This document shows positions 39,882 to 41,548 of a stretch of DNA of 64,000 nucleotides, piece after piece. A program made the translations under genes and the position numbers. Each line of letters begins with the position of its first letter. Position 1 is the stretch's first letter. The notes beneath the pieces are model-generated. The model did no database searches. It was not told the origin of the DNA and saw only the letters and a program-made list of their open reading frames with translations. This stretch comes from a virus: the IMG/VR virus record IMGVR_UViG_3300022204_000005. One strand, written 5' to 3'.

Positions 39882-39965
39882 CTTTAAGTCCTTTTGGTGA
39901 AGGAAGTTTGACAGTGTGTTTAGCTAACACCAACTAAACTTCAGGTTCGATTCCTGACTTAGAGT
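39882..39965 (+). ncRNA. tRNA-like element with elongated central arm, copy 1
   Basis: acceptor CTTTAAG/CTTAGAG; D-arm CCTT-TTGGTG-AAGG; T-arm TCAGG-TTCGATT-CCTGA; no canonical 7-nt anticodon loop. Confidence 0.55.
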
Positions 39966-39988
39966 TTAGAACATACGGAGTGAGAGCA

Positions 39989-40174
39989 ATGTATTCCAAA
40001 CACGAAGATTTCATTGTACCCACTGCAAAGACAACGGGTGCTTATAAGAGAGTTCATAAAGAGTTAAATGAACCTACACTAGAAGAACTGTCTTGGCTCC
40101 CTTTATGGGATATGGCAAAAGTTAAGAGAAGGCTTGAACGCCTATACAAAACACACACACACACTGGAGGTTGA
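39989..40174 (+). CDS. hypothetical protein
   Basis: ORF 39980..40174, ATG start. Confidence 0.5.
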   Translation: MYSKHEDFIVPTAKTTGAYKRVHKELNEPTLEELSWLPLWDMAKVKRRLERLYKTHTHTGG

Positions 40175-40277
40175 TTATGTCTGCCGTCTATTATATAGGA
40201 CTTGTCCTCTTTCTACTGGCTATAGGCTTCATGTTCTCTTACTTTGTTGATGAAGTCGATGATGGAGAAGACGACGG

Positions 40278-40556
40278 ATGATCACCTCAATCGGTAAACT
40301 GAGATATGTTGAGACCCTTCTAAAGTTTCAATGGGTAATCCTTGATTCCAAAGGAGATTTTGAAAAATACAAAGCAACCGGGAAGCTTGGTCACCTTAGA
40401 GGTCCTGTAAAGATGCAATCCTCTAGTCGAATGAGCCGAAAGACTGCTCGATTACTTTTGCATCATGTCCTGAAAGGTCAAACCGGGCCTAAAGAGCTAA
40501 TGGATGTAATCCCTGGATTGAAAGAACATCAAACTGTTGAGAGGACTTACGTATGA
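40278..40556 (+). CDS. hypothetical basic protein
   Basis: ORF track. Confidence 0.6.
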   Translation: MITSIGKLRYVETLLKFQWVILDSKGDFEKYKATGKLGHLRGPVKMQSSSRMSRKTARLLLHHVLKGQTGPKELMDVIPGLKEHQTVERTYV

Positions 40557-40735
40557 GCCTTGAAGATGATATCAAATACTTGCGGTCCAGGGTTCGATGG
40601 ACTCAAAAGCTTGAAGACGAGCTTAAAGCTCTTCATGCAAAAGGGGAGCCCCCTAACATGATGGAGTTCGGGGTGCCTGACGGGGGCTCTGAGGCGATGA
40701 AGAAAGCTCTTGACAGGAAGGCCCGGAAGGACTAG
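40553..40735 (+). CDS. hypothetical protein
   Basis: ATGA overlap; GAGG SD. Confidence 0.6.
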   Translation: MSLEDDIKYLRSRVRWTQKLEDELKALHAKGEPPNMMEFGVPDGGSEAMKKALDRKARKD

Positions 40736-40738
40736 ACT
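40710..40738 (+). promoter_or_regulatory. sigma70-type promoter upstream of structured leader and tRNA-Arg
   Basis: TTGACA-17-TAGACT; TAG is the upstream stop codon. Confidence 0.7.
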
Positions 40739-41004
40739 GTCTCTTGTTCAGGGGAGGTCTCGTTGGGCTTCAAGACCTTCTCTGAGCAGAAAGTTTCTTT
40801 CTGGTAGGGCTGAACCTTAAAAGGTTACCTGATAACGATCCTAAGGTACCGACTGTCTGGTGACAGGCTAATCGGGAGCTTTTAAGAAATCTGCCTCCAA
40901 GCAGATTATTATTAGCGTACCTATGTTCTGTAGAAATATGGAGCAGGTGATTGTATAAACCACCCTTCTTTGGATTCCTTATCCTATCAGAAAGGAACTT
41001 TCAA

Positions 41005-41080
41005 GCATCCGTAGCTCAGCCTGGATAGTAGCAACGGTCTTCTAAACCGTAGGTCGCAGGTTCGAATCCTGCCGGATGTA
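41005..41080 (+). tRNA. trnR: tRNA-Arg(TCT)
   Basis: acceptor GCATCCG/CGGATGT; ACGGT-CTTCTAA-ACCGT; T-arm GCAGG-TTCGAAT-CCTGC. Confidence 0.92.
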
Positions 41081-41114
41081 CTGGTTCTTTAACACACCCA
41101 CACACGAGAAAAAC

Positions 41115-41357
41115 ATGCAAGACTCTAAACCTATTGTTATCTCCGACTCTCAATTTAGAGAAATGCTTTGTTCTGGCTGTGAACAGCTAGGCTATTCAGA
41201 TTTGGAAATGGCCATTCTTTTGGAGGTCAGTCGTCCAACAGTTACTCGTTGGAAGGCCGGGACCACGGTCCCACGGCCTCTACTCAGAGCCTATATAGTT
41301 AAAAAGATTTCAGAAACCGTTTTGAAGGGGGATATTGCCTCGAAAGAGGACGGGTAG
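41115..41357 (+). CDS. XRE-like helix-turn-helix protein
   Basis: YSDLEMAILLEVSRPTVTRWKAG...P. Confidence 0.75.
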   Translation: MQDSKPIVISDSQFREMLCSGCEQLGYSDLEMAILLEVSRPTVTRWKAGTTVPRPLLRAYIVKKISETVLKGDIASKEDG

Positions 41358-41416
41358 CTCTCGTTCCTGATCCCTTGGGGTTTTGGTCATCATTGTTGAC
41401 CTCCTTGCCCCTACCT

Positions 41417-41460
41417 AAACCTCTGCAGTGTGTCTAGAGGTAAAACAGAGCAAACACGCA
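41417..41460 (+). ncRNA. 44-nt H-type pseudoknot motif, copy 1
   Basis: CCTCT/AGAGG stem; loop GTGTGT pairs with ACACGC; covaries with copy 2. Confidence 0.65.
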
Positions 41461-41548
41461 GGGCCCTTGCATTGTGGTAAATGCCTTTTATTAGAGTACC
41501 CTGCGATACTTTGATAAATGTATCAGGTTCAATTCCTGATAGGGCTCT
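41461..41548 (+). ncRNA. tRNA-like element with elongated central arm, copy 2
   Basis: acceptor GGGCCCT/AGGGCTC; D-arm GCAT-TGTGGTAA-ATGC; 12-bp arm with 8-nt loop; T-arm TCAGG-TTCAATT-CCTGA. Confidence 0.6.

Follow-up and report, generated by a model that had tools for sequence, protein, structure and literature searches.

Two transfer RNA-derived, non-decoding elements with a long central arm in the genome of an uncultured phage

The IMG/VR virus record IMGVR_UViG_3300022204_000005 provided a stretch of 64,000 nucleotides (nt), in the following called the window, that belongs to a sediment-metagenome contig of 77.5 kilobases (kb) from an uncultured phage. Two elements in the window, copy 1 and copy 2 (Table 1), have the shape of a transfer RNA (tRNA), are tRNA-derived and do not decode. 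Acceptor stem, D arm and T arm are those of a tRNA, and decoding is precluded because the 7-nt loop with U33 is missing and a long hairpin is present instead. As the most likely role we tentatively propose a signal in cis for the host enzymes RNase P and RNase Z, with a tRNA-shaped RNA as by-product.

Direct reading and folding supported the architecture described for both copies in an earlier note on this DNA: an acceptor stem of 7 base pairs (bp), a 4-bp D stem with GG in the loop, an over-long central arm without a U33 anticodon loop and a T arm. The acceptor of copy 1 (39882-39888 / 39958-39964) includes one G-U pair (U3:G70) and is followed by the discriminator T 39965. Behind T 39889 the D stem (39890-39893 / 39900-39903) closes the loop TTGGTG, and the central arm of 36 nt (39905-39940) consists of 6 bp, a 3x3 internal loop, another 5-6 bp and the 5-nt loop TAGCT (39921-39925). 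The T arm (39941-39957, T loop TTCGATT) follows directly, a variable loop being absent in this long-arm register. No mismatch was present in acceptor, D and T stems. The cloverleaf was the minimum-free-energy fold (z -1.8), and it remained optimal when 190 nt of context were included. Upstream of copy 1 lie about 490 nt (39390-39880) without an open reading frame (ORF), for which Rfam at E<=10 gave chance-level microRNA matches only.

Copy 2 has the more regular arm. Its acceptor (41461-41467 / 41541-41547) also has a single G-U pair (G2:U71), T 41468 precedes the D stem (41469-41472 / 41481-41484, loop TGTGGTAA), and the central arm of 32 nt is an uninterrupted helix of 12 bp (41487-41498 / 41507-41518) without a bulge, closed by the 8-nt loop CCCTGCGA (41499-41506). 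The T arm (41523-41539, T loop TTCAATT) is separated from the acceptor by one extra nucleotide, T 41540, which extends the acceptor/T stack to 13 bp instead of 12 bp. With z -4.4 and no mismatch in 28 pairs the cloverleaf was again the minimum-free-energy fold. A 7-nt match of the copy 2 loop to the T stem of tRNA-Arg was discarded as chance level (by our own estimate about eight such matches are expected per 64 kb). The single-U linker between acceptor and D stem, a further element of the earlier description, exists in one register, whereas the register used by ARAGORN gives U8-N9 and the D stems CTTT/AAGG and CATT/AATG. Both copies are intergenic and on the coding strand, copy 1 ending 24 nt ahead of the ATG at 39990 and copy 2 44 nt ahead of the ATG at 41593.

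These folds did not arise by chance. With the T arm and the 3' acceptor strand held fixed and the upstream bases shuffled (20,000 trials per copy), acceptor, D arm with GG and central helix were regained in 3-8 of the 20,000 trials for copy 1 and in none for copy 2. The bodies have the features of decoding tRNAs: G18 and G19 in the D loop, T54-T55-C56-R57-A58 in the T loop, and a 7-bp acceptor with discriminator stacked on a 5-bp T stem, with one extra pair in copy 2. The region between D and T arms comprises 37 nt in copy 1 and 38 nt in copy 2, compared with 23 nt in a class I tRNA, and an anticodon arm of 5 bp and 7 nt with U33 and purine 37 is missing in both, the loops having 5 and 8 nt. 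Neither copy was called by ARAGORN at default settings, and Rfam RF00005 did not match either of them, even at E<=10 in a 3.7-kb search. Replacement of the central arm in silico by the anticodon arm of the local tRNA-Thr led to a default ARAGORN call for both copies, thus the central arm is the sole cause of the non-detection. Copy 2 obtained 23.9 bits against the selenocysteine tRNA family (tRNA-Sec, RF01852; cut-off 47) because its stack has 13 bp and its D stem is extendable to 5-6 bp, but this assignment was rejected, the score being below the cut-off and the central region lacking UCA; copy 1 gave no match to RF01852. A transfer-messenger RNA (tmRNA) domain was rejected as well: the tmRNA search of ARAGORN was empty and G3:U70 is not present (the copies have U3:G70 and G2:U71).

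In the earlier note the two copies had been united in one RNA family, on the argument that acceptor and D sequences differ and yet pair. This part was not supported. The T arms are indeed identical at 16 of 17 positions (stem TCAGG/CCTGA) and the central regions are of the same size class; an arm or loop sequence is not shared. Outside the T arm the resemblance between the copies does not exceed that of arbitrary tRNA pairs of this phage: global alignment with shuffle controls yielded z 2.1-2.3, versus values of up to 5.7 (Arg-Val; Thr-Arg 4.1) for unrelated tRNAs of this phage aligned pairwise. Different sequences that pair do not amount to covariation, because any two different tRNAs behave in this way. 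MAFFT misaligned the copies, and since they are not alignable position by position, no covariation is claimed.

The local tRNA-Thr(UGU) is the likely parent of copy 2, which looks like a remodelled paralogue. The resemblance of the D arms had been noticed before, and it held: the stem is the same and the loop nearly identical. GCCCT and an exact 8-mer, AGGGCTCT, that spans the acceptor into the trailer, are also shared. The global alignment reached z 5.0 with shuffle controls, at the top of the range for tRNA-tRNA pairs and not above it. Judged by this comparison, 3 nt seem to have disappeared from the acceptor/D junction of copy 2, and the acceptor would have slid two pairs outward, two new 5' G becoming partners of what had been the discriminator and the first base of the trailer. 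Because a 7-bp acceptor was regained in the new register, the comparison suggests that the helix was kept up after the damage. In this tRNA-Thr the usual tertiary pair U8-A14 is reversed, position 8 being A and position 14 being T.

The copies are not the only unusual tRNA-like elements of the window. The T-loop motif GGTTCRANYCC was observed 16 times, with 0.85 expected, and marks the true tRNAs plus two short-arm cloverleaves and two minihelices of acceptor and T arm (a count of at least two). ARAGORN at default settings found nine tRNAs, eight of which were confirmed by the Rfam tRNA model; this model added two odd ones, the abutting short-arm cloverleaves at 42924-42989 (43.1 bits) and 42990-43057 (35.2 bits), with a truncated anticodon arm and without ARAGORN call. 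Their central arms have 3 bp with a 5-nt loop and 5 bp with a 3-nt loop, and they are part of the same set of anticodon-less elements. Deviations confined to the anticodon arm, with the other stems intact, thus characterise four or more cloverleaves of one compact genome, a pattern not expected from even decay. A further T arm is located at 46458. The tRNA-Pro(GGG) called by ARAGORN at 514-590 scored below the Rfam gathering score and has a G/C run as anticodon arm; it is probably a further non-canonical element and not a working tRNA. Outside this phage, a T-arm scan of IMG/VR retrieved a further 13 tRNA-like elements that are non-canonical but have perfect 7-bp acceptors. A 77-nt long-arm element is situated between tRNA-Pro and tRNA-Phe in the tRNA arrays of five IMG/VR contigs; four of its copies are identical, and three changes, all compensatory, set the fifth apart (acceptor, one; long arm, two).

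Table 1. Coordinates of the tRNA-like elements and associated features; positions refer to the window unless a contig is named
Feature	Position	Strand	Remarks
Copy 1	39882..39965	+	84-nt tRNA-shaped element; sequence reading and fold; without ARAGORN or Rfam call
Copy 2	41461..41548	+	88-nt tRNA-shaped element; sequence reading and fold
Repeated element, 44 nt	41417-41460	+	second copy 42655-42698; directly abuts 5' end of copy 2; repeat search
458-nt segment with copy 1	39639-40096	+	skipped in a contig of the lake-water run X2; ends inside small ORF 39990-40174
Two abutting short-arm cloverleaves	42924-43057	+	66 and 68 nt
Acceptor and T-arm minihelix	39292-39345	+	begins 4 nt past a stop codon
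Acceptor and T-arm minihelix	6241-6280	+	between two ORFs, just after stop codon
tRNA-Thr(UGU)	38578-38649	+	ARAGORN; shares sequence with copy 2
Promoter-like site	36447-36475		directly before tRNA-Trp
Promoter-like site	37052-37080		directly before tRNA-Met
Promoter-like site	38520-38548		directly before tRNA-Thr
Promoter-like site	40710-40738		260 nt upstream of tRNA-Arg
Promoter-like site	45746-45774		directly before tRNA-Lys
Promoter-like site	46854-46882		directly before tRNA-Val
77-nt long-arm element	L011 ~1550-1640, L069, L099 ~10850-10940, L130, L131		other phages; conserved 20-nt stretch after; no ARAGORN call

For the copies we infer transcription, cleavage and a benefit to the phage along the following lines. 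The copies lie between small early genes and, lacking promoters of their own, would be transcribed as part of longer messages. With acceptor, D and T arms retained, the RNA would probably adopt the L-shape with its elbow, the anticodon arm being rebuilt as a closed long hairpin. Host RNase P would cut at the 5' ends, as for the true tRNAs of the region, while the 3' ends would be generated by RNase Z, or by RNase E plus exonucleases. These cuts would divide the polycistronic message and free a tRNA-shaped by-product of 84-88 nt, able to receive CCA. Consistent with a processing signal, both copies combine GGTTCRANYCC with a non-canonical tRNA fold in an intergenic position on the coding strand, and all tRNA-like elements of the window are likewise intergenic and on the coding strand. 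The conserved 77-nt long-arm element of other phages may be counted in favour of this role, and so may the non-random minimum-free-energy folds, the intact helices, the ARAGORN calls after arm replacement, the excess of the T-loop motif, the apparent upkeep of the copy 2 acceptor and the persistence of the copy 1 cloverleaf in context.

Several observations weigh against this proposal. No homologue of either copy was found in phage records, IMG/VR, or the JGI metagenome and protein searches. With megablast and blastn, the 50,697 phage records searched gave matches to the T arm only; IMG/VR yielded no match to either copy's string of T arm plus acceptor, to the 44-nt repeat, or to the FtsH-like and DUF7227 proteins encoded in the window. 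The FtsH-like protein retrieved only cellular or distant loci from the JGI metagenomes, its relatives being cellular loci without a tRNA region, some of them binned as Myxococcota, and searches with the proteins of the neighbouring ORFs of 282 and 92 amino acids returned the window's own proteins only. A relative at about 90 % identity was present on short contigs of a lake-water run (X2). The contigs cover tRNA-Thr, tRNA-Ile, 39394-39488, 39560-39638, 40097-40577 and the short-arm pair, the latter at about 90 % identity with indels; the region of copy 2 (41138-41871) is not covered, which says nothing either way on this copy. One contig of 802 nt joins 39638 to 40097 and thus skips the 458-nt segment with copy 1, in place of which the relative has at most about 72 nt, as calculated from the piece lengths. 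Because its segment is skipped, copy 1 appears dispensable in a close relative, although the joint is moderate evidence, since joints of contigs placed at less than 95 % likeness can be artefacts. The left edge of the difference lies just past a terminator-like hairpin (39613-39633), and copy 1 may be part of a cassette that was inserted or deleted. This hairpin, situated upstream of copy 1, may also cut the element off from upstream transcription.

Transcription signals and the fold in context are unfavourable as well. Six perfect TTGACA-N17-TAnnnT sites exist in the window, five of them directly before true tRNAs (Trp, Met, Thr, Lys, Val). Copy 1 is without such a promoter, the only candidate being a 9/12 match at 39838-39865, and copy 2 is without such a site. 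For copy 2, the leader and first acceptor bases CGCAGGG (41457-41463, + strand) are perfectly complementary to the arm loop (41499-41505), with a chance of about 0.01 in a rough estimate for this 7-base complementarity. In the fold in context the 7-bp leader-loop pairing dominates and the pair probability of the acceptor is about 0.3; in the unprocessed transcript the pairing would, according to this fold, compete with the acceptor stem. Finally, a minihelix suffices for RNase P and RNase Z, and a signal in cis does not account for the retention of the D arm and of a long paired central arm. A separate peculiarity concerns the promoter-like site of tRNA-Trp: its -10 box ends 2 nt ahead of the tRNA, and the predicted start would lie inside the acceptor stem.

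Alternatively, the copies could be young pseudogenes, that is, duplicated tRNA genes with an anticodon arm wrecked by insertion or rearrangement, functionless and awaiting deletion, a possibility that we consider somewhat unlikely. Missing homologues, the absence of the copy 1 segment from the relative, and the lack of tRNA-type promoters all agree with it, as do the resemblance of copy 2 to a rearranged tRNA-Thr paralogue and the absence of a specific relation between the copies. However, all acceptor, D and T pairs are intact, and random damage would not be expected to produce central arms as well paired as the new ones (in copy 2, 12 of 12). The restriction of changes to the anticodon arm in four cloverleaves of one genome and the apparent repair of the copy 2 acceptor in a new register likewise speak against functionless remnants.

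The kept D arm, G18/G19 and T loop, and hence the elbow, beyond the minihelix needed for processing, would fit a function in trans: processed and CCA-tailed small RNAs could sequester, as decoys or sponges, a host factor binding the tRNA body at the elbow or acceptor end, e.g., a defense toxin acting on tRNA 3' ends or an enzyme of processing or modification, and the rigid arm would bar the ribosome. Several such elements of differing build in this phage, and the conserved long-arm look-alikes in tRNA arrays of other phages, point in the same direction. Nevertheless, we regard decoys as unlikely, given that the copies, unlike the true tRNAs, have no own promoter, that they share no arm or loop sequence, that copy 1 seems dispensable in a relative and that no evident partner protein was detected among the neighbouring ORFs scanned (40 against Pfam, 10 against PHROGs). 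A wider version, in which all anticodon-less RNAs (two long-arm, two short-arm and the minihelices) would be working parts, acting in trans as decoys for factors of the tRNA body or CCA end, and in which the leader-loop pairing of copy 2 would be a switch gating its own RNase P processing, appears slightly more doubtful still.

True tRNAs from which a 14-nt insert is removed by splicing or editing, the second half of the interpretation in the earlier note, are very improbable; tRNA-shaped RNAs remain, the intron or editing step does not. The suggestion draws on a relaxed ARAGORN search (80 % threshold, introns allowed), which proposes a 14-nt insert for either copy and the identities Val(AAC) for copy 1 and Ser(AGA) for copy 2, on central regions that exceed a class I tRNA by 14-15 nt in both copies, and on the unexplained inserts in tRNAs of Lak megaphages (PMC6784885). 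The relaxed search was unspecific, with seven calls in 3.6 kb beyond both copies. When every excision of a single segment was enumerated, none gave a 5/5 anticodon stem with U33 and purine 37, and solutions with a 4/5 stem (A34 anticodons) were also obtained from shuffled arms, at a rate of 20 % for copy 1 and 36 % for copy 2. Both proposed anticodons start with A34, unusual for bacteria, and the insert of copy 1 would fall between positions 31 and 32 rather than 37/38. The pairing of the long arms is far better than that of the proposed mature stems. A length of 14 nt does not allow self-splicing, and splicing signals were not detected: no bulge-helix-bulge is present (the internal loop of copy 1 is a symmetric 3x3, the arm of copy 2 unbulged), and the Rfam family Intron_gpI did not match at either copy. 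As no excision restores a canonical anticodon arm, an intron-bearing tRNA was rejected. It is common for phages to contain the T arm and 3' acceptor portion of the tRNA gene that serves as their integration site in the host, but phage attachment sites (attP) of this kind can practically be dismissed: each copy comes with a D arm and a complementary 5' acceptor strand of its own, their T arm and 3' acceptor strings had no exact match in 185,579 species genomes, and the ORFs scanned included no integrase.

The genes of the window are nearly all on the + strand and the majority is without known family. The only notable domains in the ORFs scanned were NADAR, SprT-like, DUF932, DUF6232 and DUF7227; a CCA-adding enzyme, an RNA ligase, Pth and RtcB were not among them. 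Among otherwise unknown early genes are a NADAR-domain protein (34039-34599, E 4e-25) and a SprT-like metalloprotease (48630-49145, E 9e-19). The FtsH-like AAA+/M41 protease (43104-45251) has its closest relatives in cellular loci, with 67-76 % identity over the N-terminal 300 residues; these loci adjoin fvmX5 and fvmX3-analog genes, some in bins labelled Myxococcota. The kinship of the protein sequences may hint at the phage host or at the source of the gene.

If the copies are processed, the phage would use the tRNA-maturation enzymes of its host to cut its early messages. Such a layout, known from mitochondria, was not found for phages in the literature searched; 'tRNA-like' predictions in phages are mentioned without such an anatomy (PMC10690425). 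tRNA finders miss such elements, thus the tRNA regions of phages may hold more RNA genes than annotated. This pair alone adds little, with no relatives found and copy 1 missing in a close relative. With phage tRNA genes and pseudogenes (RF00005), the copies share region, strand, the architecture of acceptor, D and T arms, and the T loop, but they lack the 5-bp/7-nt anticodon arm and a strong promoter and stay under every tRNA threshold. The tRNAs with 'enigmatic introns' of Lak megaphages (Devoto et al. 2019, PMC6784885) are also over-long by extra sequence in the anticodon region; these give a clear isotype and anticodon after removal of the insert, whereas the copies do not. YrlA and other bacterial Y RNAs (Chen et al. 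2014, PMC4201824) are non-decoding, mimic acceptor, T and D arms, and carry a long stem at the position of the anticodon arm; YrlA occurs in phages too. A relation was not supported by an Rfam match, nor by a TROVE/Ro (Rsr) protein among the 40 ORFs compared with Pfam, and both ends of YrlA are located in a long Ro-binding stem, the acceptor mimic being closed, while the phage copies have their ends at the acceptor.

Two systems from eukaryotes come close to the proposed processing signal. The mascRNA/menRNA (RF01684, PMC8457004) is a tRNA-like cloverleaf without working anticodon loop inside a longer transcript; RNase P and RNase Z set it free, CCA is then added, and no decoding role is known for it. 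It differs as a product of a mammalian nuclear long non-coding RNA with a short arm on the anticodon side, without sequence relation or Rfam match to the copies. The t-elements of plant mitochondria (Forner et al. 2007, PMC1920247) are organellar and usually degenerate, whereas the phage copies keep a full D arm and a long paired central arm and their cleavage is predicted. Like the copies, t-elements are non-canonical cloverleaves or minihelices with GGTTCRANYCC, located between or beside coding regions. They direct cuts of RNase P and RNase Z that form the ends of messenger RNAs, with cleavage mapped, and some persist as small RNAs (PMC1920247).

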